Positions 6,242 to 24,069 of a DNA stretch of 64,000 nucleotides are shown here, piece by piece (within the stretch, counting starts at the first letter, position 1; each line of letters starts with the position of its first letter). Below the pieces are notes generated by a model. The model was given only the letters and a program-made list of their open reading frames with translations, made no database searches and was not told the DNA's origin. The DNA comes from Wenyingzhuangia sp. 2_MG-2023 (GTDB taxonomy: Bacteria; Bacteroidota; Bacteroidia; Flavobacteriales; Flavobacteriaceae): positions 1 through 64,000 of the forward strand of contig NZ_JAUOSB010000002.1 in NCBI RefSeq assembly GCF_030548295.1, in the 5' to 3' direction. The position numbers and the translations under genes were made by a program.

Positions 6242-6252
6242 CATCTATACAC

Positions 6253-6297
6253 AATGTATTCAAACAAGTTATAGAAATATAGCTGTTTGAATACATT
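6253..6297. terminator. 14-bp perfect inverted repeat (aatgtattcaaaca / tgtttgaatacatt) between convergent genes
   Basis: Seen directly in the sequence. There is no clear U-run, so it may be a bidirectional terminator or an RNA structure. Confidence 0.4.
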
Positions 6298-6300
6298 CTA

Positions 6301-7032: not shown

Positions 7033-7235
7033 ATTTTGCTAATTTTATTTGCAATTTAACTTATTACTCTTATATTTGAGGTACAAATAACACATAAACC
7101 AAAGAGAATGATTCAAAAATAAAGCAAAAAACAGAATTGCAAAAAAAATTAGCAACAAAAGAATAAAAACTAATAAAACAACCACTTATTATCCAAAAGT
7201 GTTTTGTAATATTAAACAGTAAAAAAATAAAATAT

Positions 7236-7631
7236 ATGAAAAACTATTTTGATAAGATCAAACATTATTTGCTGGAGTTGAACTACAACATCACTCACGA
7301 AGATAACGAAGAAGGGATCTTAATGATTCAAAATCAAGAAGAAGGAATTAACAATTTAATTTTAGGTATTGCCGATCCTATCTTAATCATCGAGCAATAT
7401 ATATTTAAAATCAACAGTCCTAACCAAGATATTTTCAAACAATTGTTACAAAAAAACAGAGACATTGTTCACGGTGCTTTTGTGTTGGACGAATCGGGAG
7501 AAAAAGTCATTTTTAGAGATACGTTGCAACTAGAAAATATTGATTTGAACGAATTAGAAGGTTCTATCAACTCCCTAAGTTTATTGTTGAGCGAATACTC
7601 ACAAAACATCATTGAGTTTTCTAAAGCATAA
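7236..7631 (+). CDS. YbjN/CesT-like putative chaperone-fold protein (tentative)
   Basis: 131 aa acidic cytoplasmic protein with an alternating beta/alpha pattern, immediately upstream of pspA. The arrangement is analogous to E. coli yjfI-yjfJ. Confidence 0.35.
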   Translation: MKNYFDKIKHYLLELNYNITHEDNEEGILMIQNQEEGINNLILGIADPILIIEQYIFKINSPNQDIFKQLLQKNRDIVHGAFVLDESGEKVIFRDTLQLENIDLNELEGSINSLSLLLSEYSQNIIEFSKA

Positions 7632-7724
7632 AACCAAAACACACAAAGTCTGGAAACAGAAAATAAGATTGATTGTGGTAAAACAATCAACAAGAGTAGA
7701 GTATAAATTATTAAAACATTCGTT

Positions 7725-8423
7725 ATGAACATATTCAAAAGATTATTTAACGTAGGAAAAGCAGAAGCACATTCTGCAATTGACATGATGGAAGATCCCA
7801 TCAAAATGACCGAACAAGGAATTAGAGACATGAAAGGTGATTTGACCAAAGCGCTAGAAGGTTTGGCACAAGTAAAAGCCATGTTGATTCGTTCTAAAAA
7901 CGACAAGACAGAATTTGAGGCAAAAGCAAAAGACTACCAAAGCAAAGCCATGTTGATTTTGCAAAAAGTGCAAAAAGGAGAGTTGGCAGCTGAGGATGGA
8001 GATCGTTTGGCCAAAGAAGCATTGGTTCGTAAAGAAGAAAATCAAGCCCATGTAAGTCGTGCTACCGCAGAAATTGAAAAATTCTCTCAATCTGTATCGC
8101 AATTAGAAAGCAATGTAAACAAATTAAAGAGCAACATTGGCAAATGGGAAAACGAATTGAAAACCTTAAAAGCCAGAGTAAAAGTTTCTAATGCTACCAA
8201 AAACTTAAACAAACAAATGGCTGCCATTGACAGTTCTAGTACGGTAAACATGTTAGAAAAAATGAAAGAAAAAGTAGCTCAAGAAGAAGCTTTGGCAGAT
8301 GCGTACGGTGATATTGCCAACGAGTCTAGAAGCATTGACGAAGAAATAGACAAAGTTTTAGACAGCACACAAGCAAGTGCTGATAATGACCTTGATGCTT
8401 TGAAAAAACAGATGGGTTTATAA
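7725..8423 (+). CDS. pspA: PspA/IM30 family protein (phage shock protein A homolog)
   Basis: 232 aa, all-helical coiled coil. N-terminus MNIFKRLFNVGKAEAHSAIDMMEDP matches the PspA/Vipp1 amphipathic helix and core. Confidence 0.85.
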   Translation: MNIFKRLFNVGKAEAHSAIDMMEDPIKMTEQGIRDMKGDLTKALEGLAQVKAMLIRSKNDKTEFEAKAKDYQSKAMLILQKVQKGELAAEDGDRLAKEALVRKEENQAHVSRATAEIEKFSQSVSQLESNVNKLKSNIGKWENELKTLKARVKVSNATKNLNKQMAAIDSSSTVNMLEKMKEKVAQEEALADAYGDIANESRSIDEEIDKVLDSTQASADNDLDALKKQMGL

Positions 8424-8434
8424 AAAACCTCCCC

Positions 8435-8470
8435 ACTCAGAGTTTGATAAATTTCAGACTCTGAGTTTTT
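8435..8470 (+). terminator. Rho-independent terminator after pspA
   Basis: Stem actcagagt ... actctgagt followed by TTTTT. Confidence 0.7.
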
Positions 8471-8490
8471 AAAAAAATTGCAAAAGAAAA

Positions 8491-9189
8491 ATGACACTTT
8501 ACGAACTAGTTTTTTCTCCCATAAACACTCCTTTGACGATTTTCTTAATCGCTCTTACCGTTTATAGAATTATCACCACAATTATAGGACTAGATTTTGA
8601 CTTTGATGTAGACATAGATCTAGATATTGATGTAGACATGGATGCTTCTACAGATAGTACCGCTGTAGATTTGGAAGAAATTTCTAATGTAGAACTGAAA
8701 AACGAAACCGTTGTTAGCAACCGAAGAAAGTCTTTAAAATGGTGGCAAGTCTTGCTGATCTATTTCAACTTTACAGAATTGCCCTTTATGTTTACACTAA
8801 CTTCTTGGGTATTTTTCTGGTGGTTCATCACCGTATTGGGAACGTACATTACGTTTAGCCATCACAACGCATTTGGATTCGTCATTTTTGCAGCTGCTAT
8901 CATTCCCTCCTTAATTTTAAACAAAATTTTCACCACTCCTTTCAAAAGTGTATTTAAAAAACTAGAAAGAAAAGGAGTTGATGCCCTTGACCTTTTAGGA
9001 AGAAAAGGAATTTTAGATTCCAATATTTCTGGAGACAGAATGGGTCGCGTAAAAGTAAAGATTGACGATGATCCTATTCTTATCTACGGAAAATCTTTAA
9101 ACGGTGAAGCTTTAAAATCAGGAACAGAAATATTGATTATCAAAGAAGATACAAGCAAAAAATTTTACTACATAAAAAACAACTATTAA
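8491..9189 (+). CDS. NfeD/YqiJ-like membrane protein (flotillin partner)
   Basis: 232 aa. TM helices, an acidic DFDFDVDIDLDIDVDMD repeat, and a C-terminal beta (OB-like) domain. Directly upstream of the flotillin gene, as in E. coli yqiJK. Confidence 0.6.
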   Translation: MTLYELVFSPINTPLTIFLIALTVYRIITTIIGLDFDFDVDIDLDIDVDMDASTDSTAVDLEEISNVELKNETVVSNRRKSLKWWQVLLIYFNFTELPFMFTLTSWVFFWWFITVLGTYITFSHHNAFGFVIFAAAIIPSLILNKIFTTPFKSVFKKLERKGVDALDLLGRKGILDSNISGDRMGRVKVKIDDDPILIYGKSLNGEALKSGTEILIIKEDTSKKFYYIKNNY

Positions 9190-9201
9190 CAAAAAATTAC
9201 T

Positions 9202-11298
9202 ATGAATTTAAGTATCATATCACTAGCATTCTCAGACATTGCGTCTTCTATGGTAGGAATCGCCGTTGGAGGTTTGGCAGGATTAATTTTACTTTTTGTG
9301 CTATTTATAGCCATGTTTTACAAAAAAATACCGCAAGGTGAAGCTATTGTAAAAACAGGGTTTGGAGGCACACAAGTTGCCTTTGACAAAGGAATGTACG
9401 TAATACCTGTTCTACACAAAGTAGAAATTATGGACATTTCTGTAAAAAAAATCAAGGTAGAGCGTATGCTAGAAGATGGTTTGATTTGTAAAGACAATTT
9501 AAGAGCAGACATAAAAGTGGCCTTTTTTGTAAGAGTAAACAAATCCAAAGATGCTATAATAGAAGTTGCACAAACCATTGGTTGTGAAAGAGCTTCTAAC
9601 GAAGAAACTTTGTACGAATTGTTTGAAGCTAAGTTCTCAGAAGCTTTAAAAACAGTAGGTAAAAAGTTCAATTTCATCGATTTGTACGAAGCTCGTAGAG
9701 AGTTTAGAGATGAAATCATCAACATTATTGCTACAGATTTAAACGGATACACACTAGAAGATTGTGCGATTGATTATTTAGAACAAACGCCCATCAAATA
9801 CCTAAAACCAGACAATATTCTAGATTCTGAGGGAATCAAAAAGATTACAGAATTGACGGCAGCACAAAACATCAAAGCCAATTTGATTAGACGTGATGAA
9901 GAAAAAGTGATTCGAAAACAAGATGTAGAAGCCAGAGAAGCCATTCTAGAATTGGACAAACAATTGGCAGAAAAAGAAGAGCAACAAGGTCGTGAAATTG
10001 CCAATATCAAAGCTAGAGAAGCAGCAGAAATAGCAAAAGTATCTCAAGAAGAACGTTTAAAATCTGAATCTGCTAGAATTATTACGGATGAGAAAGTAAA
10101 AATTGCAGAAGAAAATAAAGACCGCCAAATTATAGTAGCCGCTAAAAACAAAGAACGTACAGAAGCTGTAGAAACAGAACGTGTACAAAAAGATAGAGAT
10201 TTAGAAGCTACTGAAAGAATGAAGATTGTTGCCTTGGCAGAAATTGACAAAGAAAAAGCCGTTGAAATAGAACGTAAAAACATTCAAGATGTAATTCGTG
10301 AACGTGTTTCTTTAGAAAAAGGTGTGGTAGAAGAACAAGAAAACACCAAAGATATTGAAGCATTTAAAACGGCAGATCGTGAAAAGAAAGTAGCCATTAC
10401 CTTGGCAGAAAAAGATGCAGAAGCATCCTTAATTACAGTCATCAAAGCTGCCGAAGCACAAAAAGAAGCTTCAAAACAACGAGCAGAAGAAATGAACATT
10501 GATGCACAGGCTAAAAAAGAAGCTTCTACCAAAGAAGCAGAAGCTAGAAAAATTATTGCAGATGCTACTGCCAAAGAAGAAGCAACTATTGGATTGTCTG
10601 AAGCACAAGTATTGCATGCAAAAGCAGATGCTCACGAACGTGAAGGTTTGGTACAAGCTAATATTATAGAAAAAACAGCCTTGGCAGAAGCAGTTGGAAT
10701 TGAAGTACGAGCTGCAGCCATGAAAAAACAAGGGTTGGCAGAAGCAGATATTATTAAAGAAAAAGCACTTGCAGATGCGGCCGGTATTGAAGAGAAAGCA
10801 GAGGCTATGAAAAAACTAGATGGAGTTGGAAAAGAGCACGAAGAATTCAAACTGCGTTTAGACAAAGAATTGCAAGTAGACTTGGCAGAAATCAACATAC
10901 AAAAAGAAATTGCCGATGCACAAGCAGACGTAATTGGAGAAGCTTTGAAAGCTGCTAATATTGATATTGTAGGTGGTGAAACCATGTTCTTTGACCAAAT
11001 AATTGGACAAATTACTCGCTCTAAAGGAATAGACCGCTTGGTAAATCATTCTGCAAACATTACAGAAGTAAAAGATGCCATTTTAGGTTCTAATGACGTA
11101 AAAGGAAATTTGTTAGACAAAGTTAAAAGTTTTGCCACGGATTACGGAATTGGTTCTGAAGACATTAAAAACTTAACCATCTCTAGTTTGTTGTTAAAAC
11201 TACATGGAAAAGCAAGTTCTAACGATGAGAAGAATTTATTCTCTAATCTGACCAATTTGTCCAAAGCATTAGGATTGGGAGATCAGAAGTTGGGTTAA
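9202..11298 (+). CDS. Flotillin / SPFH (band 7) domain protein with a long E/A/K-rich coiled-coil tail
   Basis: 698 aa. N-terminal TM segment, an SPFH domain (EAIVKTGFGG...VIPVLHKVEIMDISV...), then extensive EA-repeat coiled coil as in YqiK/flotillins. Confidence 0.85.
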   Translation: MNLSIISLAFSDIASSMVGIAVGGLAGLILLFVLFIAMFYKKIPQGEAIVKTGFGGTQVAFDKGMYVIPVLHKVEIMDISVKKIKVERMLEDGLICKDNLRADIKVAFFVRVNKSKDAIIEVAQTIGCERASNEETLYELFEAKFSEALKTVGKKFNFIDLYEARREFRDEIINIIATDLNGYTLEDCAIDYLEQTPIKYLKPDNILDSEGIKKITELTAAQNIKANLIRRDEEKVIRKQDVEAREAILELDKQLAEKEEQQGREIANIKAREAAEIAKVSQEERLKSESARIITDEKVKIAEENKDRQIIVAAKNKERTEAVETERVQKDRDLEATERMKIVALAEIDKEKAVEIERKNIQDVIRERVSLEKGVVEEQENTKDIEAFKTADREKKVAITLAEKDAEASLITVIKAAEAQKEASKQRAEEMNIDAQAKKEASTKEAEARKIIADATAKEEATIGLSEAQVLHAKADAHEREGLVQANIIEKTALAEAVGIEVRAAAMKKQGLAEADIIKEKALADAAGIEEKAEAMKKLDGVGKEHEEFKLRLDKELQVDLAEINIQKEIADAQADVIGEALKAANIDIVGGETMFFDQIIGQITRSKGIDRLVNHSANITEVKDAILGSNDVKGNLLDKVKSFATDYGIGSEDIKNLTISSLLLKLHGKASSNDEKNLFSNLTNLSKALGLGDQKLG

Positions 11299-11386
11299 TC
11301 TAACAACTACCCAAGGGGCTTAAGCCCTTTGGGTATCCTGTTGGACAATTCATTAGTTTATTCATTAGTTTTTAACAGATCTAAAG

Positions 11387-11884
11387 ATGCTATATTTAGT
11401 AACATTCACAACTCATAATTCAAGAATTTCCGATAGAATGGTTACTTTTTGCTCTCCAGAATTCATTAAAAATCTAAAGCCTTTTTTATTATTAGACAGC
11501 GATTATCTAAAAATGATTGACTTGGTTGCAGAAGCGATAACAAAATATAAAATAGTTACAATTGCCTTTACAGTAATACCAGATCATGTTCATCTGTTAG
11601 TTGATGTTAAAAATAAGAAAGAATTAAATGAACAAATTCGAAAATTAAAAGGGTTCACCTCCTATCAATTTCAACGATACAAAGAATGGAAAAAAGGAGA
11701 AAATCATGTTTGGTCTCAAAAATTTCACAAAAAAGAGGTCGATTCTGAATTGAACAACATAGCCCGAGTCGTAAATTACATCCATAAAAATACAGAAAAA
11801 CATTACAAAAGATGGGGAAATTTGTTGAATGAATCTAAGCCTCTTCTAAAGAAGCTAAACGAGAAAAACTGTAATCAACTGTAA
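11387..11884 (+). CDS. IS200/IS605-like Y1 (HUH) transposase of the RAYT/TnpA_REP type
   Basis: 165 aa. YLVTFTTHNSR (cf. WFFTVNLRNRR of E. coli RAYT), HUH motif IPDHVHLLV, and a C-terminal WSQKFHKK...VVNYIHKNTEKH with the catalytic Tyr. Confidence 0.8.
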   Translation: MLYLVTFTTHNSRISDRMVTFCSPEFIKNLKPFLLLDSDYLKMIDLVAEAITKYKIVTIAFTVIPDHVHLLVDVKNKKELNEQIRKLKGFTSYQFQRYKEWKKGENHVWSQKFHKKEVDSELNNIARVVNYIHKNTEKHYKRWGNLLNESKPLLKKLNEKNCNQL

Positions 11885-11918
11885 TCAACTGTAATCAACT
11901 GTAATCAACTGTAATCAA
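11869..11918. repeat. 10-bp microsatellite (CTGTAATCAA) x5 overlapping the RAYT stop codon
   Basis: actgtaatca repeated five times in tandem. The RAYT C-terminus (KNCNQL*) is encoded inside it. Confidence 0.9.
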
Positions 11919-12050
11919 TGGGCTTAAGCCCATTGAAATAATTAGCTAGAAAATAACGAAACTACTTCTCCATACACTTTTTTCCGCTACGTTACAAAAA
12001 GCACTCGAAGTGACTCAGGAACTAAATAACAAAACAGGTCTACAATACAA

Positions 12051-15000
12051 ATGAAAAATAACGCTATAGAACTAGAAGGAGGAACGTACGAAATCATTCA
12101 AAATCGTTTGCAAAAGCATAAAAATGATTTGGTGCTGCGTTTACAAACTCTCAACGAAAACAGAAAAGAGGTCTTTGGAGCTGTAGAAACCAAACTGATT
12201 GCCAACGATAGAATCAACACCCAAAATTCATGCATTGCTAGAGATATTGTTTCCTTAGGAAACACCTGTTTGTTAGGGTACAATGTGCATTTTGGACTAC
12301 GATCAGAAATAAAACTGGAAGATGTATTTAGCGTTTACAAATTTCAGAACAATCGCTTTCAATCTCAAGACTTGAGTTTCATCAACCAAGAGGGATTTGT
12401 TTCTGATTTTAAGAACCTTTACAAATATTACCGAAATACCTTTTTCACCAAATTCATGCTTACCGAGCAATACCTACACATGGTGTTTCAGATTGGGGAA
12501 AAAGTTGAAGACATCAAAACATTCAAATGGTTGGTAAAAGACAACCAAATTACCTACATAGACAACCGTAGTGATCACGAATATACGTTTCCAAACCAAC
12601 ACGAATTTAGATGGCAAGAGGTTACTTATGACAACTTTAGAAAAGGAAGTCATCCTCATGTTTCTATTTTAGACAAACTATTTGTAGAAGCTATTGGTGG
12701 TGATTTGACCATAAAAATAGAAGACAATTCTGAAACTGGAAAAGGGATTTATGCAGAACCTGTAGATCACAAAGATCAAACCCTAGAAGATGCAAAATAC
12801 AGATTTGCTGATTTGGGAAATATAACCGTTCTAGAAATTACGCCTTACCAAGAGACGGCTCGTTATTTTGTGTACAATCACAAAGTACAGCAAGTTTCTA
12901 GAATTCAAAGCATACAAGACACCGCTGTATTGTTGCCAGATAGTCAAGGATTGATTTTTCCTGAAGGATATTACTTACAAACAGGAACGTTTAAAAAGTT
13001 TGATCGTGTTGTTCAAAATGTCAAGTTTCAGAAAAAAATAGCTTCTTCCAACGGAGAGGATTATCTCTACGTTTTTTACGAAGAAAAAGAAGGAGATTAT
13101 GTGTTGATGCATTACAACATTATTGAACAAACCATTCACACTCCAATTGTTTGTAATGGGTATACACTTTTGGAAAATGGGGAATTGAGTTATTTCAAAT
13201 CCGAAAGTGAAGCTACCAAACACCATGTGATTCAGATTTGGCAAACTCCTTTTTCTAATAACATACAAGTAAATACAGAAAACAGTGATTCGCTCTTATT
13301 TAAAATAGGAAACAAAGACATTGTAAAAGCAATGGCTGAGTGTCAAGAAATCATCACTTTGTTAAACAAAGAAGACAATTACGATGGTTTGTATGCTGAT
13401 ATTTCCAAACAAAGCACCGATGTTTTGGATGCTTATTTTTGGATTTCAGAACCCGATACTTCTAGCTTAAATGTTCCTTTAGAAGAATTAAAATCTACCG
13501 CCAATGCTGCTATTGGTGAATTTGAAAAAGTAGTACAACTAAAGAAAATTGCGGTTGAAGCTGCCGAAAATTTAGAATCCGAAATTGCTGAACTTTTCAA
13601 CAAAATAAAACACAGTACGTTTACCTCTATTGATGATTTTGTATTGTTATTGACTAATTTAAGAGCTTCACAAGGAAACACCATTGCGCTTAGAGACATC
13701 CGTTACATTAATTTAGAACGTTTGGATGAGGTGAGTGATAGCATTAAAGAACAAACAGAACGTATTTCTAGACGATGTGTTACATTTCTATTGGATGACA
13801 AAGCTTTGATTCCTTATCAAAAAAGGATTCAAGAAAACAATGAAGTTTTAGAAACTTTGACCAAAGTAATTGAAGGGAAAAAACTAGAAAAGAACAGCAA
13901 TCAAATCAGTCACGATTTGGAACTTTTGGTAGATATTGTCAACAATTTGGACATTGAAGACACTTCTCACTCCACTAAAATTATTGACAACATCTCTTTG
14001 TTATTTGCAGAAATTAACCAACTAAAAGCAGGTATCAAAAGAAAAGTTCAAGATCTCAACAACAAAGAAAGTAAAGCCGATTTTGTTGCGCAACTAAAAC
14101 TGTTTGATCAAAGCATCATCAATTTTATAGACATTGCCAACACTCCAGAAAAATGTGACGAATACCTAACCAAACTCTCTGTTCAATTAGAAGAATTGGA
14201 AGGAAAATTTGCCGATTTTGATGAATACATCACCGAAATTATCAGCAAAAGAGAAGAAGTTTACAGTGCCTTTGAAAATAGAAAAACCAGCTTGGTAGCG
14301 GCTCGTAATAAAAAAGGAATTGCGCTACAAAGTGCTGCAGAACGCATTTTAAAAAGCATTCACAAAAAAGCGGCAACGTTTAAAAGTGAAGAAGAAATTC
14401 ACGGTTATTTTGCTTCGGATTTGATGGTGAGCAAATTGCACAACATTGTAACGCAATTGCAAGAACTAGAAGAAACGGGAAAAGCAGAAAGTCTACAAAC
14501 CAATTTAAAAACAACCAAAGAAGAAGTTATTAGAAAACTGAAAGATACTTTGGATTTGTATGAAGATGGTGAAAATGTCATCAAGTTTGGAAACCACCGA
14601 TTTGGAGTTAACAAACAACATTTAGACTTGAATATTGTCAACAAAGATGGTCGGTTGTATTTTCATTTAACGGGTACTGACTTTTACGAACTGATAGAAA
14701 ACAAAATTTTAAACAGTGCTAAAGAAATTTGGGAACAAGAATTGATTTCTGAAAACACCGAAGTTTATAGGTCTGAATATTTGGCTGCTAAAATCTATCA
14801 GAAATATGGTTTGCAAAATTTATCAAACCACACTCCAGAATCTCTGAGTGATTTGGTAAAACAAGAAAGTAACGAAAACTATACGGAAGGTTATGTAAAG
14901 GGAGTGCATGATTTGGATGCATTTGTACTTTTGAAACATTGGATTCAGACTGAAAACGATTTGAAATTACTTAGCTTCCCTCCTAGCATTCGTGCCGAAG

Positions 15001-16868
15001 CTCAATTTTTCTGGCAGGAATTGAACGGTGAAGTTCAAAAAAAATTGAATCAAAAAATAAAAGCTACAGGTGCTATTCTAAATGTATTTCCAAACGCTAC
15101 AGAATACAGCGCTTGTATAGCTGCTATTTTGGAATTGTTACCTCATAAAAATCAACATGTTGCCTATTACTTGTTTCACGAACTAAAACAAAATGATTTG
15201 TTTAGTGTTAGTCAACAAGCTTTGGATTTAAAAACAGACTTTGTTAATTATCTGCAAAGCAACAATGCTTGGCTGTCTTTTGAGCAATCGTTAAACAATT
15301 TCACAGTCCTATCAGACAAAACAGAACTGTGCACACAATGGTTGCAATCTTACTGTAGTAACGAATCAAAACATTCCACCTTTTACATTCAAGAAGCGGT
15401 AGCTTTGTTACTATTCAACAATTCTACCTTGCCTTTGTTTGTAAAAACCAACGTTCCTATCAACAATTTAAAAGGAGATCACGGAACTATTGTAAATGGA
15501 ATTTACACGTTTGAATATTTTAATTTTATTCAAAAATTAAACGATTACAACACGGCCATTGTTGCTAAATTTTTAGCGTTTAGAGAAGCTAAGAAACAAG
15601 TGATTCACCAACAGAAAAACGCTTTAAAACTAAATGAATTCAAACCAAAAGTATTGTCTTCTTTTGTTAGAAATAAATTGATCGATCAGGTCTATTTGCC
15701 TCTGTTTGGAGATAATTTATCCAAACAATTAGGAACGGTTGGAGACAACAAACGTACCGACAGAATGGGAATGTTGTTGTTAATCTCCCCTCCTGGATAT
15801 GGTAAAACTACGTTGATGGAATACATTTCTGAACGATTGGGATTGATCTTTATGAAAATAAACGGACCTGCTATTGGACACGAAATTACTTCTGTAGACC
15901 CTATGGCAGCCACCAACTCAGCCACCAAACAAGAGTTAGAAAAACTGAACTTGGCGTTTGAAATGGGAAACAATGTAATGTTATATTTGGATGATATTCA
16001 ACATTGCAATCCTGAGTTTTTACAGAAATTTATTTCACTGGCCGATGGACAACGTAAAATAGAAGGAGTTTACAAAGGAAACACCAAAACCTACGATTTT
16101 AAAGACAAGAAATTCTGTGTAATTATGGCCGGAAACCCTTATACAGAAAGTGGTGACAAATTTAGAATTCCAGACATGTTGGCCAACAGAGCTGATATTT
16201 ACAACTTGGGAGATGTGATTGGAGAAACTGCTGATTTGTTCAGAATGAGTTTGATTGAAAATGCACTAACCGCTAATGACACTCTTAGACAATTGAGCAG
16301 TAAAAATTTTGACGATTTGTACACTTTGGTAAATCATATAGAACAAAACAGTTCAGAAAGTTTGAACTTGAAAGGAAACCACACCCAACAAGAAATCAAC
16401 GATTATATTTCTGTATTGCAAAAAGTGATTGTTTTGAGAAATACTGTGGTAAAAGTGAACGAGCAATACATAAAATCTGCAGCGATGGAAGATGCTTACA
16501 GAACCGAACCGAGTTTTAAACTACAAGGTTCTTATCGTGATATGGGGAAATTAACAGCCAAAGTAGTACCAATCATGAACGATAAAGAGTTGGATTCTCT
16601 GCTATTAAGTCACTACGAAAGTGAATCACAAACCTTAACCTCAGCAGCCGAAGCCAATTTGTTAAAATACAAAGAAATGACCAAATCTCTGACAGAAGAA
16701 GAAACCGAGCGTTGGGAAAAAATGAAAGAAACCTTTGTAAAAAACAACAAGTTGAAAGGTTTTGGAAATCAGAATGAAATGGCTCAGGTTTTGCAACAAA
16801 TGATGGAGTTCTCTGATAATTTAGAGGGAATTAAAAACGTACTGAAAAATGGATTTGGCAAAAACTAA
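12051..16868 (+). CDS. Giant (1605 aa) cytoplasmic protein with a C-terminal MoxR/AAA_5-type AAA+ ATPase domain; the N-terminal ~1200 aa have no domain I can assign
   Basis: Single uninterrupted 4.8-kb ORF in AT-rich DNA. Walker A ISPPGYGKTTL (near nt 15790), Walker B VMLYLDD, and sensor/arginine region GNPYTESGDKFRIPDMLANRADIY typical of AAA_5/MoxR. The N-terminal third is beta-rich, the middle is long helical/coiled coil, and there is no signal peptide. Confidence 0.6.
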   Translation: MKNNAIELEGGTYEIIQNRLQKHKNDLVLRLQTLNENRKEVFGAVETKLIANDRINTQNSCIARDIVSLGNTCLLGYNVHFGLRSEIKLEDVFSVYKFQNNRFQSQDLSFINQEGFVSDFKNLYKYYRNTFFTKFMLTEQYLHMVFQIGEKVEDIKTFKWLVKDNQITYIDNRSDHEYTFPNQHEFRWQEVTYDNFRKGSHPHVSILDKLFVEAIGGDLTIKIEDNSETGKGIYAEPVDHKDQTLEDAKYRFADLGNITVLEITPYQETARYFVYNHKVQQVSRIQSIQDTAVLLPDSQGLIFPEGYYLQTGTFKKFDRVVQNVKFQKKIASSNGEDYLYVFYEEKEGDYVLMHYNIIEQTIHTPIVCNGYTLLENGELSYFKSESEATKHHVIQIWQTPFSNNIQVNTENSDSLLFKIGNKDIVKAMAECQEIITLLNKEDNYDGLYADISKQSTDVLDAYFWISEPDTSSLNVPLEELKSTANAAIGEFEKVVQLKKIAVEAAENLESEIAELFNKIKHSTFTSIDDFVLLLTNLRASQGNTIALRDIRYINLERLDEVSDSIKEQTERISRRCVTFLLDDKALIPYQKRIQENNEVLETLTKVIEGKKLEKNSNQISHDLELLVDIVNNLDIEDTSHSTKIIDNISLLFAEINQLKAGIKRKVQDLNNKESKADFVAQLKLFDQSIINFIDIANTPEKCDEYLTKLSVQLEELEGKFADFDEYITEIISKREEVYSAFENRKTSLVAARNKKGIALQSAAERILKSIHKKAATFKSEEEIHGYFASDLMVSKLHNIVTQLQELEETGKAESLQTNLKTTKEEVIRKLKDTLDLYEDGENVIKFGNHRFGVNKQHLDLNIVNKDGRLYFHLTGTDFYELIENKILNSAKEIWEQELISENTEVYRSEYLAAKIYQKYGLQNLSNHTPESLSDLVKQESNENYTEGYVKGVHDLDAFVLLKHWIQTENDLKLLSFPPSIRAEAQFFWQELNGEVQKKLNQKIKATGAILNVFPNATEYSACIAAILELLPHKNQHVAYYLFHELKQNDLFSVSQQALDLKTDFVNYLQSNNAWLSFEQSLNNFTVLSDKTELCTQWLQSYCSNESKHSTFYIQEAVALLLFNNSTLPLFVKTNVPINNLKGDHGTIVNGIYTFEYFNFIQKLNDYNTAIVAKFLAFREAKKQVIHQQKNALKLNEFKPKVLSSFVRNKLIDQVYLPLFGDNLSKQLGTVGDNKRTDRMGMLLLISPPGYGKTTLMEYISERLGLIFMKINGPAIGHEITSVDPMAATNSATKQELEKLNLAFEMGNNVMLYLDDIQHCNPEFLQKFISLADGQRKIEGVYKGNTKTYDFKDKKFCVIMAGNPYTESGDKFRIPDMLANRADIYNLGDVIGETADLFRMSLIENALTANDTLRQLSSKNFDDLYTLVNHIEQNSSESLNLKGNHTQQEINDYISVLQKVIVLRNTVVKVNEQYIKSAAMEDAYRTEPSFKLQGSYRDMGKLTAKVVPIMNDKELDSLLLSHYESESQTLTSAAEANLLKYKEMTKSLTEEETERWEKMKETFVKNNKLKGFGNQNEMAQVLQQMMEFSDNLEGIKNVLKNGFGKN

Positions 16869-16883
16869 GAAATAAAAAACACT

Positions 16884-17435
16884 ATGGGAATATTTGACTT
16901 TTTTAAGAAGAAAGAAACCGAAAGACACTTTGATCCTTTGAACATTAAAGTAGCTGATTTGGAAAAAAACTACTTGCTAGATTACCAGTTTGAAACTTGG
17001 ACTGTAGCTGCTATGTTTGAATACGACTGGGGAAATAATTATTTTACCCGAGAGTATACGTTGGTCAACGGCAAAAAAAAGAAATATTTAGAAATAGAAG
17101 ACGATGGAGGTATTATTTTAACAATGTCTGAAGGTCTAAAATTGAGAAAATTAGGAGACGATGTAACCGATCATATAGACCGTAACAACGAGCCGCCTAA
17201 AAAAATTGTTTACGAAGGTGTACTTTACTACTTAGATGAAAAGAGTCCAGGTTACAGCAGAAATGTAGACAATGAAAATTGGGAAGAGTTGATTTCCTTT
17301 GATTATCTTGACGATGAAGAAGAAAAAACCTTGTGCATTACCCAATATGGGGAGCATGAATTTGAAGCTTGTAGAGGAATCATTATTAAAGAAAGAGACA
17401 TTAGCAATATATTGCCCTCACAACAAGATAATTAA
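16884..17435 (+). CDS. DUF4178-like cytoplasmic protein (tentative)
   Basis: 183 aa, acidic, beta-rich (YQFETWTVAAMFEYDWGNNYF...LEIEDDGGIIL). Lies 15 bp after the giant gene. Its size and its position next to DUF350 and a spermidine-synthase-like gene fit DUF4178 neighbourhoods. Confidence 0.35.
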   Translation: MGIFDFFKKKETERHFDPLNIKVADLEKNYLLDYQFETWTVAAMFEYDWGNNYFTREYTLVNGKKKKYLEIEDDGGIILTMSEGLKLRKLGDDVTDHIDRNNEPPKKIVYEGVLYYLDEKSPGYSRNVDNENWEELISFDYLDDEEEKTLCITQYGEHEFEACRGIIIKERDISNILPSQQDN

Positions 17436-17457
17436 TTAAATTTGAAAAAAATCAACT

Positions 17458-18255
17458 ATGAAGTTTTTTAAAACCTTTAGCATTCTGCTCATCACCCTAA
17501 TAGTCGTTTCTTGTGGCTCTGAGAAAAAACCGTACGTAAAATCTCCTTTAGATGTAATTGTAACAACGTACATAGACCAGCAAAATTATAGCGTGATTCT
17601 GGCTGACATGAATTACGAAGAAAGCAACGATTCCTATTTTCACAAATATCGAATTGTAATTCCTAAAACAGCCACTCCTACAGGTTCTGAAAACGATTTT
17701 GAAATCATCAACACCGATTGGAAAAAAGTTTCTCTTCTTGTGTTTGAGCAGCATCAAAACGATTTAGGAATGACGGTACTTTCTAAAAAAAATGGCGTTT
17801 TAGACAAAAAAACAGCTCCTGCAGGTTATGACAATTATGTAGGGAACAAAAAATACGGACAATGGCAAACTAGCTCTAACGGAACATCATTTTGGGCATT
17901 TTACGGTCAATATGCGTTCATGCGTTCTATGTTAGGATGGGGATCTGGATACCGATACTACCGAGATGATTACAATTATTACAACAGCTACAGAGGTCGT
18001 CAAAACTACTATGGTAGAAACAATTCATTTGGAACCAACAACTACAAAAGCAACACTTCTACTTGGGCAAACAAACCACAAAGCTTTAAACAAAAAGTAC
18101 AAAGCAAAGTAAAAAAGAGTGCTGCTACTCTTAAATCAAAATCGTATTCTTCGGGAAGTAGTTATGGAAATAGCTCTCAAAAAACGACCAGAAGTACCAG
18201 TAGATACAGCAACAGTTCGTCTTCTAGATCTCGCAGTGGAGGATTTGGAAAATAA
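17458..18255 (+). CDS. Lipoprotein with a low-complexity Y/N/S/R/G-rich C-terminal tail
   Basis: 265 aa. Lipobox LIVVSCGS. The C-terminal ~130 aa are YRYYRDDYNYYNSYRGRQNYYGRNNSFGTNNY...SSSSRSRSGGFGK. May correspond to YjfM/DUF1190-type lipoproteins (inference). Confidence 0.45.
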   Translation: MKFFKTFSILLITLIVVSCGSEKKPYVKSPLDVIVTTYIDQQNYSVILADMNYEESNDSYFHKYRIVIPKTATPTGSENDFEIINTDWKKVSLLVFEQHQNDLGMTVLSKKNGVLDKKTAPAGYDNYVGNKKYGQWQTSSNGTSFWAFYGQYAFMRSMLGWGSGYRYYRDDYNYYNSYRGRQNYYGRNNSFGTNNYKSNTSTWANKPQSFKQKVQSKVKKSAATLKSKSYSSGSSYGNSSQKTTRSTSRYSNSSSSRSRSGGFGK

Positions 18256-18284
18256 CACAAACAACAACGTTAAAAAACATTGAC

Positions 18285-19154
18285 ATGAACGAATATATTG
18301 ATTTTACCGAATTGTTAAACTCCGGAGGGTACGTACTTACTGGATTGCTGATATTCATCCTTGGAAAAATCCTTTTCAAATTAACGCACTCCAAAATCAA
18401 CATTCAACATGAATTGGTAGAAAAAGACAATTTTGCTTTTATCATTTCTTATGTAGGTTATTTTGTAGGATTGCTCATTACTATTGGAGGTAGTATTGTG
18501 GGAGAAAGTTATGGTTTTTGGATAGACATAGAACATATTTTTATTTATGGAATTCTTTCCATTCTCTTGCTTCAAGTTTCTTCATTTTTAGGAAACAAAC
18601 TCATCTTGCCTAAGTTTGATTTGAAAAAAGAAATTATTGAGGATCAAAATGAAGGTACTGGAATTATTGAAGCCATCATCTACATTGTAAACGGATTGAT
18701 TTTATACGGTGCTTTGTTGGGAGAATCGGAAACGTTAACTGAGGGAATCCTAACTTTTGTGGTGTATTGGGCAATTGGAAATGTAATGTTGATCATCACT
18801 TCTAAAATTTACACTCTTTGGCTGAATTACAACATTCACCAAGAAATAGAAAAAGACAATGTAGCTGCAGGAATTGCATTTTCAGGTGCTATTTTGGCTA
18901 TTGGAATCATTATTATGAATGCGTTGATTGCTCCTTTTATAGATTGGACAACTACTTTGGTTGATGTTTCTGTGCAAATGGTGGTTGCTTCTTTATTGTT
19001 GCCAATCATGCGTTTTTTTGCCGACAACATTCTTTTGCCAGGACAAAAATTAACGGATGAAATTGTGAATCAAGAAAAACCAAATTTAGGTGCAGGATTG
19101 GTAGAGGCTTTTGCTTACGCAGGATCTGCAGTTTTGATTTCTTGGTGCTTTTAA
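18285..19154 (+). CDS. DUF350 (YjfL-like) inner-membrane protein, tandem DUF350 repeats
   Basis: 289 aa, about 8 TM helices. The motif ...NVAAGIAFSGAILAIGIIIMNALIAP... matches E. coli YjfL NTAASLAFSGTLLG...; a second copy is at ...NEGTGIIEAIIYIVNGLILYGALL. Confidence 0.7.
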   Translation: MNEYIDFTELLNSGGYVLTGLLIFILGKILFKLTHSKINIQHELVEKDNFAFIISYVGYFVGLLITIGGSIVGESYGFWIDIEHIFIYGILSILLLQVSSFLGNKLILPKFDLKKEIIEDQNEGTGIIEAIIYIVNGLILYGALLGESETLTEGILTFVVYWAIGNVMLIITSKIYTLWLNYNIHQEIEKDNVAAGIAFSGAILAIGIIIMNALIAPFIDWTTTLVDVSVQMVVASLLLPIMRFFADNILLPGQKLTDEIVNQEKPNLGAGLVEAFAYAGSAVLISWCF

Positions 19155-19316
19155 TTTGATCAATTGTTGATTTATTTGCATCTCTTAAATTATTTAAAAT
19201 ACACAGCACTGTTCTTTACTATTTTACCCCCTATTTTGATACTGACACATAAAGTAGAAAATGGAATAAAGTAACGAGAGAATTCATTATACAAAACAGC
19301 TAAAAGCATTAAAAAA

Positions 19317-20864
19317 TTGAACTTTCTTAAAAAAAATTCATTCGTACTAAAAGCAGCAATTTTTGCTACAGGATTTGCAGGTATTGTAGCAGAGTATATC
19401 TTATCTACACTAGCTACTTATTTTATAGGAAACTCCATTTTTCAATGGACTATGATTGTTTCCTTAATGCTTTTTTGCATGGGATTGGGAAGCCGATTGA
19501 GTAAAATGATTACCAAAAATTTAATTCAGAATTTTCTACTTCTAGAAGCTTCTTTGTCTATTTTAGTCGCTTTCTCATCTGTTTTGGTCTACACATTGGC
19601 CTCTTTTACAGAACTATATACAGCAGTTATTTACTTATTGAGTATGATGATTGGATTGCTAATTGGATTGGAAATTCCACTTGTGGTTAGAATCAATAAG
19701 GAATACGAAGATTTAAAAAGCAACATTTCTTCTATTTTAGAAAAAGACTATTACGGTAGTTTGTTGGGTGGAGTCTTTTTTGCTTTTATTGGTTTGCCCA
19801 TTTTAGGATTGACCTATACTCCTTTTGTGCTGGGAATCATCAACTTTTTAGTAGCTTTGATTGTTTTGTTCCGTTTTAAAGACAAAATAAAAAACGCCCC
19901 ATTTGTAAAAATGCAACTTATTTTAGGAACCGTATTTGTCATTATTATTGGAGGAGTATTTGTAACGCAACCCATCATTCAGTGGGGAGAACAAAAAAAA
20001 TACAAAGACAAAGTAATATTATCTGAACAAACCAAATACCAAAAAATTGTATTGACCGAATGGAAAAATGAAAATTGGCTGTACTTAAACGGAAACTTAC
20101 AATTCTGTTCTATTGATGAAAAAATGTACCACGAACCTTTGGTGCATCCTATCATGAACTTGCATCAACATCCGCAAAAAATCCTAATTTTAGGAGGTGG
20201 TGACGGTTGTGCTGTTCGTGAAATTTTAAAATATCCTTCTGTAGAAAAAATAGATTTGGTGGATTTGGACCCTAAAATGACTGATTTAGGAAAAAACCAT
20301 CCTGTATTGCTAAAAAACAATTTAGGAAGCCTAAACTCCAAAAAAGTGACCATTTACAACCAAGATGCCTACATTTATTTGGAACAAAACAACACGGATT
20401 TTTACGACATTATAATATCCGATTTGCCCGATCCTAGAAACATAGAATTGGGAAGATTGTATTCCCGTGAATTTTACACGCTTTGTTACCGAAAATTAAG
20501 ACCCAATGGTTTGATAATTACCCAAGCCGGAAGTCCTTATTTTGCCACCAAAGCGTACCAATGTATAGACAAAACTATTACCGCCAGTGGTTTTACTACA
20601 GCAAAACTACACAACCAAGTATTGTCTATGGGAGAATGGGGTTGGATTTTAGGAAGCAAACAATCCATAGATAAAAAGATGTTAAAGCAACGTTTGCAGT
20701 CTTTGCATTTTAAAAACACAAACTGGATCAACCATGAAGCAATGTTGCTCATTACTTCTTTTGGAAAAGATTTTTATAAAGTAAAAGACAGCGTTGGAGT
20801 AAACGAAGTACACAATCCTGTTTTGTACAATTATTATTTAAAAGGAAATTGGGATCTTTATTAA
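19317..20864 (+). CDS. Polyamine aminopropyltransferase (spermidine-synthase family) fused to an N-terminal multi-TM domain
   Basis: 515 aa. The C-terminal domain has ILILGGGDGCAVREIL...VDLVDLDP...DIIISDLPDP (SAM/dcSAM-binding Rossmann fold, SpeE-type). The N-terminus has about 7 TM helices. The only in-frame start before the conserved first TM is TTG at 19317, with no upstream ATG, so the start is uncertain. Confidence 0.75.
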   Translation: MNFLKKNSFVLKAAIFATGFAGIVAEYILSTLATYFIGNSIFQWTMIVSLMLFCMGLGSRLSKMITKNLIQNFLLLEASLSILVAFSSVLVYTLASFTELYTAVIYLLSMMIGLLIGLEIPLVVRINKEYEDLKSNISSILEKDYYGSLLGGVFFAFIGLPILGLTYTPFVLGIINFLVALIVLFRFKDKIKNAPFVKMQLILGTVFVIIIGGVFVTQPIIQWGEQKKYKDKVILSEQTKYQKIVLTEWKNENWLYLNGNLQFCSIDEKMYHEPLVHPIMNLHQHPQKILILGGGDGCAVREILKYPSVEKIDLVDLDPKMTDLGKNHPVLLKNNLGSLNSKKVTIYNQDAYIYLEQNNTDFYDIIISDLPDPRNIELGRLYSREFYTLCYRKLRPNGLIITQAGSPYFATKAYQCIDKTITASGFTTAKLHNQVLSMGEWGWILGSKQSIDKKMLKQRLQSLHFKNTNWINHEAMLLITSFGKDFYKVKDSVGVNEVHNPVLYNYYLKGNWDLY

Positions 20865-20866
20865 AA

Positions 20867-21115
20867 ATGGTCATCGAGCGAAGTCGAGATGCAATTAAAA
20901 ACAATGAATTCAACTATTAAAAAGTAGAAATAACATCAATAAAACCATCATTAAAAAATGATCATTGAGCGGAGTCGAGATGCAATTAAAAACAATGAAT
21001 TCAACTTATAAAAAGTAGAAACAACATCAACAAAACCATCATTTAAAATGGTCATCGAGCGGAGTCGAGATGCAATTACAAACAATGAATTCAACTTATA
21101 AAAAAATAGAAGCTA
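20867..21115 (+). repeat. ~90-bp tandem repeat (about 2.7 copies) duplicating the speH RBS/start region; copies 1 and 2 encode stop-truncated 12-codon mini-ORFs
   Basis: Units start at 20867, 20958 and 21048. Each contains ATGCAATTA[A/C]AAACAATGAATTCAACT.. Copies 1-2 read MQLKTMNST[I/Y]KK then TAG. Copy 3 reads through into speH. Confidence 0.85.
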
Positions 21116-21387
21116 GCATTTACAATCACCAATTTTGGACAGATTGTACAGACCCTACTGCCTTAAAAAAAACATACGAAACATTGTTAAAAAAAGCAGG
21201 TTTCACCATTTTACTTTTTAACGAACACCATTTTCCAGAGCAAGGTTATACCTGTTTTTGGTTGTTGGGAGAAAGTCATTTGGCCATACATACTTTTCCA
21301 GAAAGCAATAAAAGTTATGTAGAATTGAGCAGTTGTAACAAAGAAAAACTAGAGGTATTTAAGCTTAAAAACAATAAAATCTCATGA
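21085..21387 (+). CDS. speH: S-adenosylmethionine decarboxylase proenzyme (pyruvoyl-dependent, SpeH-like small form)
   Basis: ESHLAIHTFPE autoprocessing/active-site motif and an N-terminal ..NHQFWTDC (cf. HxxxELWGCD). The alternative upstream ATG at 21070 lies inside the repeat. Confidence 0.75.
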   Translation: MNSTYKKIEASIYNHQFWTDCTDPTALKKTYETLLKKAGFTILLFNEHHFPEQGYTCFWLLGESHLAIHTFPESNKSYVELSSCNKEKLEVFKLKNNKIS

Positions 21388-22154
21388 AAAAAAAAGTAAG
21401 CAATTTCATCAATTACAATCCTTATTTTATTCAATTTATATATACGCTGATTGTACTAAATGTCTGTGCGCTTATTTTAGAATCTTACGACGAACTCCGC
21501 CAACACTATTCTTTTTTCTTTCATGCATTTGAAGTCTTTTCTGTAGCCATCTTTACTTTAGAATATTTTATCCGTATTTGGATTTCGGACAAAACCAAAG
21601 AAGACAAAAGAGAACGCATCAACTTTGCGTTTTCTACCATGGGAATTATAGATTTGATTGCCATTCTGCCTTTTTATTTGCCTTTTATTTTTCCTTTTGA
21701 TTTGAGAGTTCTCCGTATTCTTCGTTTGTTTCGTCTGTTGCGAATTTTCAAATTAGGACGTTATTCCAAATCCTTAAAAACCATTCGATACATTTTTAAA
21801 GAAACCAAAGCAGAATTGTCCATTACCGTATTTGTTACTTTTGTGTTGATGATCCTTTCTTCTACTTTGATGTATTACATAGAGCATGACGATCAACCAG
21901 AACAATTTGGTAGCATAGGAGATGCTTTTTGGTGGTCTGTAGCAACACTTACAACGGTAGGTTATGGAGATGTGTTTCCTGTAACTGCATGGGGAAAATT
22001 GTTGAGCGGAATTATTGCCCTTATCGGAATTGGTTTTGTGGCACTTCCTACAGGAATTATCAGTTCTGCTTTTATAGAAAAAATACAAAACGATAAAAAG
22101 AAACACCCCAATCAAACATGTAACTGTCCGCATTGTGGTAAAAAAATAGAGTAA
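21384..22154 (+). CDS. Voltage-gated-type (6TM) potassium channel
   Basis: 256 aa. S4 with spaced arginines RVLRILRLFRLLRIFKLGR, pore helix and selectivity filter TTVGYGD, and a C-terminal CNCPHC. The start ATG overlaps the speH stop (ATGA). Confidence 0.85.
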   Translation: MKKKVSNFINYNPYFIQFIYTLIVLNVCALILESYDELRQHYSFFFHAFEVFSVAIFTLEYFIRIWISDKTKEDKRERINFAFSTMGIIDLIAILPFYLPFIFPFDLRVLRILRLFRLLRIFKLGRYSKSLKTIRYIFKETKAELSITVFVTFVLMILSSTLMYYIEHDDQPEQFGSIGDAFWWSVATLTTVGYGDVFPVTAWGKLLSGIIALIGIGFVALPTGIISSAFIEKIQNDKKKHPNQTCNCPHCGKKIE

Positions 22155-22157
22155 ACT

Positions 22158-22700: not shown

Positions 22701-22725
22701 CTTCGTAAGAAAAAATTGCTGTGTT

Positions 22726-24003: not shown

Positions 24004-24033
24004 CTTGTTTGCTACCAGACAATGTTTAAACAC

Positions 24034-24067: not shown

Positions 24068-24069
24068 TG

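Follow-up and report, generated by a model that had tools for sequence, protein, structure and literature searches.

This work concerns a PspA-centred gene string in a 64,000-nucleotide stretch of DNA from Wenyingzhuangia sp. 2_MG-2023 (Flavobacteriaceae; contig NZ_JAUOSB010000002.1, positions 1 to 64,000 of the forward strand), hereafter called the window. Judging from the families and the order of its genes, the locus appears to be a composite, in which two published partner cassettes of PspA stand in tandem behind one CesT-PspA head. We consider it probable (roughly 75%) that the locus is one regulated, same-strand, operon-like string that places two alternative cassettes of PspA partners behind a single head. 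The basis of this reading is the family and fold identities of the proteins, their topology, the gene order, the modular behavior of the cassettes, the operator/promoter geometry, the tight gene junctions, and the lack of an intergenic terminator before position 24035. The arrangement is far beyond chance: 80 loci from genomes and 38 from metagenomes show the same gene orders.

A preliminary description of the window, made from the sequence letters, had proposed a PspA-centred module of eleven genes at 7236-21387. All eleven were found in their assigned places on the + strand, profile or fold searches bore out each identity, and the PspA-centred string is real. The proposed boundaries were too narrow, as the conserved unit extends from the divergent regulator at 6301 through the end of the rhomboid gene at 22700 (~16 kb). 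The view of a single module is correct in that the genes share one strand and one head, but the string is made of two separable cassettes that usually occur apart.

Gene content and extent of the locus

The features of the conserved unit are listed below, with coordinates in the window.

6301-7032, - strand: divergent regulator of 243 aa with an XRE-type helix-turn-helix (HTH) and a LexA/S24-like C-terminal domain (HTH_3, E 2.7e-10)
7036-7054, strand not applicable: operator-like palindrome O1, TTGCTAAT-N3-ATTTGCAA, at the same place in 80/80 head-bearing loci
7049-7078, + strand: match to a Bacteroidota-type promoter (-33 TTG in the right half-site of O1, 19-nt spacer, -7 box TATATTTG)
7137-7155, strand not applicable: second operator-like palindrome, O2, 101 bp from O1, with one mismatch to O1 on the - strand
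7236-7631, + strand: CesT/Tir-like chaperone (PF22550 CesT_Tir_1, E 2.7e-58, 196 bits against a cut-off of 27)
7725-8423, + strand: PspA/IM30 of the YjfJ type (PspA_IM30 PF04012, E 2.4e-40)
8491-9189, + strand: NfeD/YqiJ-like membrane protein (N-terminal transmembrane (TM) helices, C-terminal NfeD-type OB domain, alternating-Asp loop)
9202-11298, + strand: flotillin (TM segment at residues 18-36, Band_7 with 41 bits against a cut-off of 23.6, long coiled coil)
12051-16868, + strand: giant DUF3686 - coiled coil - AAA+ ATPase of 1605 aa (DUF3686 E 4.5e-179, 596 bits; DUF7902; AAA_5/AAA)
16884-17435, + strand: DUF4178 protein, cytoplasmic and all-beta (PF13785, E 7.9e-14, 52.4 bits against 25)
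17458-18255, + strand: lipoprotein of 265 aa with a low-complexity tail (signal peptide; lipobox Cys19 invariant in the family)
18285-19154, + strand: double DUF350, YjfL-like protein with ~8 TM helices (DUF350, 172 bits over two stretches)
19317-20864, + strand: domain of ~7 TM helices fused to an aminopropyltransferase, 515 aa (NCBIfam NF002956, 568.7 bits against 472, residues 7-512)
21070-21387, + strand: short, class-1b-like S-adenosylmethionine decarboxylase (AdoMetDC), SpeH (AdoMet_dc, 58 bits against 25)
21384-22154, + strand: voltage-sensor (Kv-type) K+ channel with 6 TM helices (TVGYGD filter, S4-type arginine ladder); its start overlaps the speH stop
22158-22700, + strand: rhomboid protease (GASG and His motifs)

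According to the list of open reading frames (ORFs) for 6301-24003, one gene on the - strand (6301-7032) is followed by 15 successive genes on the + strand, and the - strand ORFs within the + strand genes of the locus are all short and nested. The GC content is even along the whole locus (0.30-0.37), and an Rfam scan of the window matched no family. Several junctions are tight: 12 bp separate the NfeD-like gene from the flotillin gene, 15 bp separate the AAA+ gene from the DUF4178 gene, and the three genes after speH (those for the K+ channel, the rhomboid, and a 436-aa protein) are joined by overlaps or 3-bp gaps, with overlaps at the speH/K+ channel and the rhomboid/436-aa junctions. By simple hydropathy, the chaperone, PspA, the ATPase, and the DUF4178 protein are cytoplasmic, and the NfeD-like protein, the flotillin, the DUF350 protein, and the transferase are membrane proteins.

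The head consists of the chaperone and PspA genes. The chaperone, which had been described as YbjN/CesT-like, fell just short of the YbjN profile (20.8 bits against a cut-off of 22) and of the CesT profile (18.1 against 22), and matched PF22550 instead; it is 62-85% identical across ~80 loci. The DUF4178 assignment made along with it stood, and 120/120 homologues of that protein carry PF13785. PspA forms an ESCRT-III-fold polymer that protects the stressed membrane. The match of the window protein to PspA_IM30 is full-length (residues 2-229; 138.9 bits against a cut-off of 33.9). Searches of the PDB found no sequence relatives of the chaperone, the DUF4178 protein, or the NfeD-like protein.

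In the first cassette, the C-terminal domain of the NfeD-like protein matched NfeD-type OB barrels by fold search, with PDB 8z5g among the matches. This protein has no Pfam match even at an E value of 5, including the NfeD and YqiJ (DUF1449) models; some of its database homologues are named DUF1449 or NfeD-like by their sources. Residues 33-50, encoded by a DNA repeat at 8591-8644, form a conserved stretch of alternating aspartates (DFDFDVDIDLDIDVDMD), in which D35, D37, D39, D41, D45, and D47 show little or no variation. Residues 37-79 are probably disordered according to the predicted structure, with a predicted local distance difference test (pLDDT) score below 50, and the stretch might bind cations or polyamines. 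In the giant ATPase, conservation is highest in the AAA core, and the Walker A (SPPGYGKT) and Walker B (LYLDD) motifs are conserved in 85 sequences. In the PDB, the ATPase has a weak P-loop match to VAT/Cdc48. Its DUF3686 N-terminal domain may be labeled a propeller, following the propeller-coiled-coil-AAA+ class of Ravi et al. (2024; PMC11237479).

The second cassette runs from the DUF4178 gene to the rhomboid gene. The 265-aa lipoprotein has no Pfam match and is of the Ctha_1186 type of Ravi et al. (2024) by position and architecture. The membrane-embedded aminopropyltransferase and speH that the preliminary description had proposed were both confirmed. Pfam places Spermine_synth in the C-terminal half of the transferase, and NF002956 (PRK03612) represents the full-length, TM-fused family. 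A protein of Wenyingzhuangia sp. 2_MG-2023 matches the transferase with 100% identity. The catalytic domain is ~40% identical to solved archaeal aminopropyltransferases, and the motifs YHE, GGGDG, and D-x-x-D-P are present and >90% conserved in 30 relatives. SpeH misses the equivalog TIGR03330 (46 bits against a cut-off of 75.65), and its Pfam match covers positions 15-79 of the 107-position profile. The self-cleavage motif ES-H...C ('ESHLAIHTFPE...SSC') is invariant in 31 sequences. We considered and rejected a truncated SpeH, since all relatives are 95-107 aa in length and the short C-terminus is thus a trait of the family. The true start of SpeH may be Met6 at 21085.

Distribution of the head and its cassettes

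The comparison set comprised 127 related loci (individual loci are given L numbers). The ATPase-anchored loci, onto which the window proteins were mapped by tblastn, are the best 80 of >584 relatives of the giant ATPase, with one genome per species, and all are from Flavobacteriaceae except for one Weeksellaceae metagenome-assembled genome (MAG) and one unclassified Bacteroidetes MAG. The transferase-anchored loci are 38 metagenome loci. The denominators 74, 68, 18, and 20 used below are the numbers of loci with enough upstream or downstream sequence.

The NfeD-like and flotillin genes were found as a pair in all 74 AAA+-anchored loci, and 65 of these also have the CesT-PspA dyad, such that the head with the YqiJ-flotillin-AAA+ cassette is common in Flavobacteriaceae. 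Cassette 2 follows the AAA+ gene in just 3/68 AAA+-anchored loci, to which two shorter contigs add. Viewed from the transferase (SpeE_TM) side, the DUF4178-lipoprotein-DUF350 triad precedes the transferase gene in 18/18 loci, and the gene directly before DUF4178 is pspA in eight of them and the AAA+ gene in six; the other four loci are intermediates. The eight loci with pspA in this position carry the same regulator and chaperone as the window. Downstream, speH follows the transferase gene in 20/20 loci and a K+ channel follows speH in ~30/34 (loci noted for this channel: L003, L004, L074, L098-L117, and L121). The channel is of one of two unrelated architectures, namely, 6-TM with a voltage sensor or 2-TM with TrkA/RCK domains; a rhomboid accompanies the 6-TM channel wherever the contig reaches that far and is absent after the RCK-type channel. 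These patterns show a conserved head with two separable cassettes that are usually apart, and the tandem form is in the minority (3/68 and 6/18).

The composite layout of the window, with one string and a single dyad, is also found in L004, L049, and L074. The contigs of L003 and L005 are cut, yet both have the AAA+ gene directly before DUF4178; in L098-L104, L117, and L122, the AAA+ gene lies before cassette 2 and the heads are outside the fetched sequence. By taxonomy, the composite recurs in Flavicella, a second Wenyingzhuangia, some Aquimarina, and uncultured Flavobacteriaceae. The head with the polyamine cassette was also found in Tenacibaculum and in Carboxylicivirga, which belongs to a different order of the class Bacteroidia. 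Moreover, the DUF4178-lipoprotein-DUF350 triad is free-standing in Persicobacter and an Ichthyobacteriaceae MAG (L124 10001-12432 and L125 10001-12213), with no PspA, transferase, or speH gene within 10 kb. In L105 (2413-5902), one of the four intermediates, decayed YqiJ/flotillin/AAA+ fragments lie between the head and cassette 2, which suggests that a composite can decay into the short configuration.

Several loci have an accessory gene pair directly before DUF4178, encoding proteins of ~140 aa (UCP032817-like in L122) and ~340 aa ('MYLEN.ITIDPSQLT'). The pair was found in L004 (14842-16318), L081 (6253-7677), L088 (4612-6069), and L122 (6091-7556) and is absent from the window. L088 has an additional 898-aa protein, a relative of which follows the K+ channel in L003.

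The window also contains insertions, repeats, and downstream features outside of this conserved set:

11299-11345, + strand: left REP-like hairpin with core GGGCTTAAGCCC at 11316-11327 (-27.9 kcal/mol, z -5.7)
11387-11884, + strand: insertion of a RAYT/IS200-like Y1 transposase (Y1_Tnp, E 5.7e-14, 52.7 bits against 23)
11867-11935, + strand: 10-mer AACTGTAATC in 5.2 copies, then the right REP-like hairpin with core at 11920-11931 (tandem-repeat and folding analysis)
20860-21104, + strand: 91-bp tandem repeat of 2.7 copies that duplicates the start of speH (tandem-repeat finding)
22693-24003, + strand: 436-aa protein, a doubtful member of the unit
24035-24066, strand not applicable: bidirectional intrinsic terminator (-22.1 kcal/mol, z -7.9, then a U tract)

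The RAYT gene has the HUH (HVH) and Tyr motifs, and its match to the NCBIfam model REP_Tyr_transpos (56.6 bits) is under the cut-off of 80. The GGGCTTAAGCCC core occurs in two copies in the window, one on each side of RAYT, with no further copies there. RAYT is absent from 118/118 related loci of other species and present in two strains (L126 and L127) that are both ~99% identical to the window. The RAYT-to-AAA+ gap is 166 bp in the window and 136 bp in both of these strains (30 bp shorter), where TRF at a score of 60 did not detect the 10-mer array. A DUF2339 gene (979 aa) lies directly 5' of the ATPase gene in Wenyingzhuangia sp. IMCC45574 (L122 1-1200), at the same junction as RAYT in the window, which suggests that this junction tolerates insertions. 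Flavicella L049 has an unrelated hairpin at this flotillin/ATPase junction (9755-9787).

Strain-level variation was also found in cassette 2. In relatives, the DUF350 and transferase genes overlap and a few bases separate the transferase gene from speH, whereas the window has spacers of 162 and 205 bp; the window transferase starts with TTG, whereas that of relatives starts with an ATG overlapping the DUF350 stop. The 162-bp spacer (19155-19316) is unalignable between strains that are otherwise ~99% identical. The 205-bp spacer is made of the 91-bp repeat, which copies the ribosome-binding region and first 12 codons of speH, and each extra unit carries a 12-codon decoy ORF ending in a stop. 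Compared to the 2.7 copies of the window, the ~99% identical strain L126 has 5.7 copies (13942-14455); TRF detected none in L127, where the speE-speH gap of 115 bp corresponds to ~1 unit. RAYT, the 10-mer array, and the 91-bp repeat are private to this strain group. Beyond the rhomboid gene, the 436-aa protein has no family match in profile searches and no match in the loci of other species, and the 5' half of its gene (22737-23514) is unalignable between the ~99% identical strains.

Regulation, rival explanations, and possible mechanism

The divergent regulator is present in 65/65 dyad-bearing loci. Its C-terminal domain matches Peptidase_S24 below the cut-off (E 0.0017) and has a weak match to the LexA C-terminal domain in the PDB. 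By manual alignment, the positions of the LexA catalytic Ser and Lys are occupied by V and R ('DDLVMV...VRRF'), from which we infer that the regulator is probably a non-cleaving repressor. Its S24-like domain would be a LexA-fold sensor or dimerization domain that appears to be non-catalytic.

The spacer between the regulator and chaperone genes opens with TTGCTAAT-N3-ATTTGCAA in all 80 head-bearing loci. O1 does not vary at positions 2-7 and 12-17, and 79 of the 80 loci have A at position 18; ATTAGCAA half-sites recur at the place of O2 in other loci. We scanned 6000-24500 for the Bacteroidota-type promoter consensus TTG-N17-21-TAnnTTTG, and the only full match in intergenic gaps was that at 7049-7078. 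Its -7 box lies at 7071-7078, and a TAnnTTT(G/A) box is found at a constant distance from O1 across the 80 loci. A sigma-70 promoter scan was dropped, as it gave 69 sites compared to 66 in shuffled sequence and the model is unsuited to Bacteroidota. The overlap of the operator with the -33 element fits a repressor that occludes the promoter, and the geometry as a whole would be consistent with such a repressor and a single long transcript. The first intergenic terminator downstream along the string is that at 24035-24066.

Two other elements were observed in this spacer. A conserved box, TTTYGTAWTATTA, lies at 7202-7214, ~20-30 nt 5' of the chaperone start, and is also found in L049, L081, L093, L001, L010, L016, and others. 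In L001, L004, and L006, a tiny upstream ORF ends with its stop codon inside the box. Many loci with longer spacers have a very hydrophobic ORF of 12-24 codons between the promoter and the chaperone gene (e.g., MFIVVVYILALLI and MLLLLITLLKYITNFIVYLVNFL; found in L001, L004, L006, L010, L016, L036, L058, and L066), which is absent from the window and could encode a leader or sensor mini-protein.

Several points weigh against the reading of one operon-like string with cooperating cassettes. The case for cotranscription is built on the spacing of the genes and on consensus scans. The RAYT insertion and the -27.9 kcal/mol hairpin just past the flotillin gene could uncouple the downstream genes, and the 162-bp (19155-19316) and 205-bp (20865-21069) spacers could hold promoters that the consensus scan missed. 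Other composite loci have 0.4-1.9 kb of extra genes between AAA+ and DUF4178. Among the proteins, the Walker B motif of the ATPase ends in DD, not DE; the fold search gave no informative match for the DUF4178 protein; and the catalytic residues of the transferase are like those of ordinary polyamine synthases, which does not favor a non-polyamine substrate. Furthermore, each cassette works alone in most genomes, which weakens the case for a functional integration of the two.

Some of these points would be explained if two independent units, namely, a PspA-flotillin-AAA+ operon and a DUF4178-to-K+ channel operon, abut by chance of lineage, with each working with PspA and perhaps transcribed separately. 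We regard this as possible but doubtful. Cassette 2 is lacking in 65/68 AAA+ loci and cassette 1 in 8/18 SpeE_TM loci, unrelated genes separate AAA+ from DUF4178 in the composite loci of other genera, the triad stands alone in Persicobacter and the Ichthyobacteriaceae MAG, and RAYT with its hairpin breaks the string, all of which are expected of separate units. However, only 15 bp without any promoter match lie between the AAA+ stop and the DUF4178 start, both cassettes join the same head and regulator, cassette 2 never comes with a second dyad in composites, and the composite is seen in several genera (Wenyingzhuangia, Flavicella, Aquimarina, and uncultured Flavobacteriaceae).

It is unlikely that SpeE_TM and SpeH carry out ordinary synthesis of spermidine or other free polyamines, with the PspA neighborhood having no functional meaning. 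The ~40% identity to archaeal aminopropyltransferases, the retained YHE, GGGDG, and D-x-x-D-P motifs, the NCBI name (polyamine aminopropyltransferase), and the retained ES-H...C motif of SpeH would suit this explanation, but the enzyme is fused to ~7 TM helices, the triad is found upstream in 18/18 loci and speH downstream in 20/20, and the same string follows CesT-PspA in Carboxylicivirga of a different order. In addition, aminopropylation of other substrates is raised by Ravi et al. (2024; PMC11237479) with reference to Li et al. (2019). As for a mobile or anti-phage defense island in place of a housekeeping envelope-stress locus, the Y1 transposase inside the locus and the giant ATPase and XRE regulator, which are gene types common in such islands, could be cited, and the regulator HTH matches PADLOC control-protein models. 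Nevertheless, nine of the ten proteins examined by PADLOC gave no match besides a generic PspA coiled-coil, and the regulator matched by its HTH only; RAYT is private to one strain group, and the locus has a flat GC content (0.30-0.37) and synteny over >100 chromosomal loci. As the PADLOC matches are limited to the HTH and the coiled-coil, we rejected this explanation as highly improbable.

Based on the preferred reading of one regulated string with two cassettes behind a single head, a mechanism may be outlined. The regulator would repress the promoter until an envelope signal relieves the repression. The chaperone would keep PspA assembly-competent and, as has been described for BacA/BacB of P. 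aeruginosa, exert feedback on expression. The NfeD-like protein and the flotillin may form an SPFH microdomain that recruits PspA to the damaged membrane, as in the case of YdjI of B. subtilis, and the AAA+ ATPase may remodel or recycle the polymers in a Vps4-like manner. SpeH would provide decarboxylated S-adenosylmethionine (dcSAM) to the membrane-embedded transferase, which may transfer the aminopropyl group to an amine at the membrane. This acceptor could be a polyamine, although some other substrate is more likely; local polyamine synthesis at the membrane, as the preliminary description had suggested, is plausible. The DUF350, lipoprotein, and DUF4178 triad would connect the periplasmic and cytoplasmic faces, and the K+ channel would adjust the membrane potential. 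The constancy of this channel suggests a link to membrane potential, and its constant position after speH suggests that the aminopropyl product and K+ flux are connected.

A bolder and rather unlikely extension is that the two cassettes constitute one depolarization-sensing repair circuit. The transferase, with its own dcSAM supply, would modify a membrane-bound amine (a lipid head group, a lipoprotein, or a cell-wall amine) and not a free polyamine, the K+ channel would be gated by or respond to the product, and the PspA polymer, flotillin cage, and ATPase would act on the same patches. In that case, the 91-bp repeat, which varies between strains and carries decoy speH starts, would serve to adjust how much the polyamine arm produces. 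With both PspA partner cassettes behind one regulator and promoter, the locus is a compact natural example that is convenient for asking whether flotillin/AAA+ remodeling and membrane aminopropylation work together in repairing the envelope. The invariant operator and the apparently non-catalytic S24-like regulator offer a regulatory handle for Psp-type responses in Bacteroidota, for which we know of no experimental model.

Relation to known systems

The preliminary description had drawn a parallel to E. coli yjfIJKLMC, and this parallel was found to hold in part. PspA/YjfJ (BLASTP 25% identity over 224 aa, E 3e-5; hhalign 92%, residues 1-231 aligned to 1-231) and DUF350/YjfL (both repeats matched by BLASTP; hhalign 89%) are true homologues, although the window protein has two DUF350 units and YjfL a single one. 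The two loci share the logic of a chaperone-like protein, PspA, DUF350, a lipoprotein, and a polyamine-related enzyme, and a K+ channel has also been reported for the yjf operon class. The remaining counterparts appear to be analogous and are not detectably related. The chaperone compared with YjfI (DUF2170) gave a BLASTP E of 0.03 in an eight-protein database and an hhalign probability of 1.4% with a shallow, Flavobacteriaceae-only profile; with similarly shallow profiles, hhalign gave 0.4% for DUF4178 against YjfK (DUF2491) and 0.3% for the lipoprotein against YjfM (DUF1190). YjfC is an ATP-grasp peptide-spermidine ligase, the fold of which is unrelated to that of the window aminopropyltransferase. 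None of the three yjf-type marker families (ATP-grasp ligase, DUF2491, and DUF1190) was found in the window. Homology to E. coli proteins is limited to PspA/YjfJ, DUF350/YjfL, and flotillin/YqiK, the last being from another locus (BLASTP E 3e-50, hhalign 99.9%), which places the window outside the yjf type. For the NfeD-like protein against YqiJ, the hhalign value with a shallow, one-family profile was not significant (1.3%). The negative results for YjfI, YjfK, YjfM, and YqiJ are weak because the profiles come from a single family.

The adjacent genes for an NfeD-like OB-domain protein and a flotillin resemble the known SPFH-NfeD pairs, namely, E. coli YqiJ-YqiK, B. subtilis YuaF-FloT, and E. 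coli QmcA-YbbJ (PDB 8z5g), in the last of which NfeD proteins sit with SPFH cages. Unlike those pairs, the window NfeD-like protein lacks a Pfam match and has the conserved alternating-Asp loop. In B. subtilis, an SPFH protein is reported to be needed to bring PspA to the membrane (PMC8581546).

For operons of this type, the only experimental model found is bacABCDEF of P. aeruginosa (PA3732-...). Its six genes are cotranscribed according to reverse transcription PCR, a bacA mutant has 6- to 13-fold higher levels of BacB-F, and BacA has the fold of a type III secretion system (T3SS) chaperone (PMC10948618). Like the window locus, it begins with genes for a T3SS-chaperone-fold protein and a homologue of PspA. 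In contrast, BacA is of the DUF2170 type, a sigma-54 promoter has been proposed, and there is no polyamine cassette.

In the 2019 work of Li and colleagues, spermidine was reportedly absent in bacteria with TM-fused transferases, and these fusions are said to have failed to complement an E. coli speE mutant.

The main proposal of the preliminary description has already been published. Ravi et al. (2024; PMC11237479) defined three classes of CesT/Tir-PspA operons, and their work contains both cassettes, the yjfIJKLMC parallel, and the idea of polyamine involvement or aminopropylation at the membrane. Group 1 has a flotillin, an AAA+ ATPase that has been proposed to act like Vps4, and a YqiJ/YuaF-like protein (archetype: Dokdonia donghaensis ANH61663.1). 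Group 2 has a 7-TM spermine-synthase-like protein, an 8-TM DUF350 protein, a Ctha_1186 lipoprotein, and DUF4178 (archetype: Shewanella oneidensis SO_3765, AAN56746.1). Group 3 has an ATP-grasp ligase, DUF350, DUF1190, DUF2491, and a K+ channel, as in yjfIJKLMC. Those authors inferred that the operons monitor polyamine or the aminopropylation of other substrates, citing Li et al. (2019) for aminopropylation of non-polyamine substrates.

Within this scheme, the window carries group 1 and, after it, the Bacteroidota form of group 2, with no second dyad. Group 1 of Dokdonia is like the window in having the same divergent cHTH+protease-like regulator, and identities between the window proteins and those of two Dokdonia sp. 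loci (L010 and L069) are 62-76%. We had considered this regulator as a previously unreported partner and rejected that claim, as the Dokdonia archetype is listed with '<-cHTH+Protease' in Table S3 of Ravi et al. (2024). Unlike group 1, the window has RAYT with REP-like hairpins between the flotillin and ATPase genes, and the string passes from the ATPase into the polyamine cassette after 15 bp. The 7-TM-fused transferase, the 8-TM DUF350 protein, the lipoprotein with its low-complexity tail, and the DUF4178 protein, linked to a CesT/Tir-PspA dyad, are features in common with group 2 of Shewanella and the AdoMetDC/membrane-SpdSyn-like/DUF350 linkage of Li et al. (2019). The Shewanella gene order differs (lipoprotein, DUF350, SpeE_TM, CesT, PspA, DUF4178, and a ribbon-helix-helix (RHH) regulator), the window chaperone is of PF22550 and not DUF2170, and the RHH regulator is lacking in the window. 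Compared with group 2, the Flavobacteriaceae/Bacteroidia version has in addition speH, a K+ channel (Kv-type with rhomboid, or RCK-type), and the XRE/S24-like regulator. The locus is thus a tidy example and not a new type of system, and current views are not overturned by it. To our knowledge, what it adds to the literature is incremental: the tandem cassettes, the invariant operator/promoter, the Bacteroidota speH-K+ channel(-rhomboid) tail, and the strain-variable repeat at the speH start.

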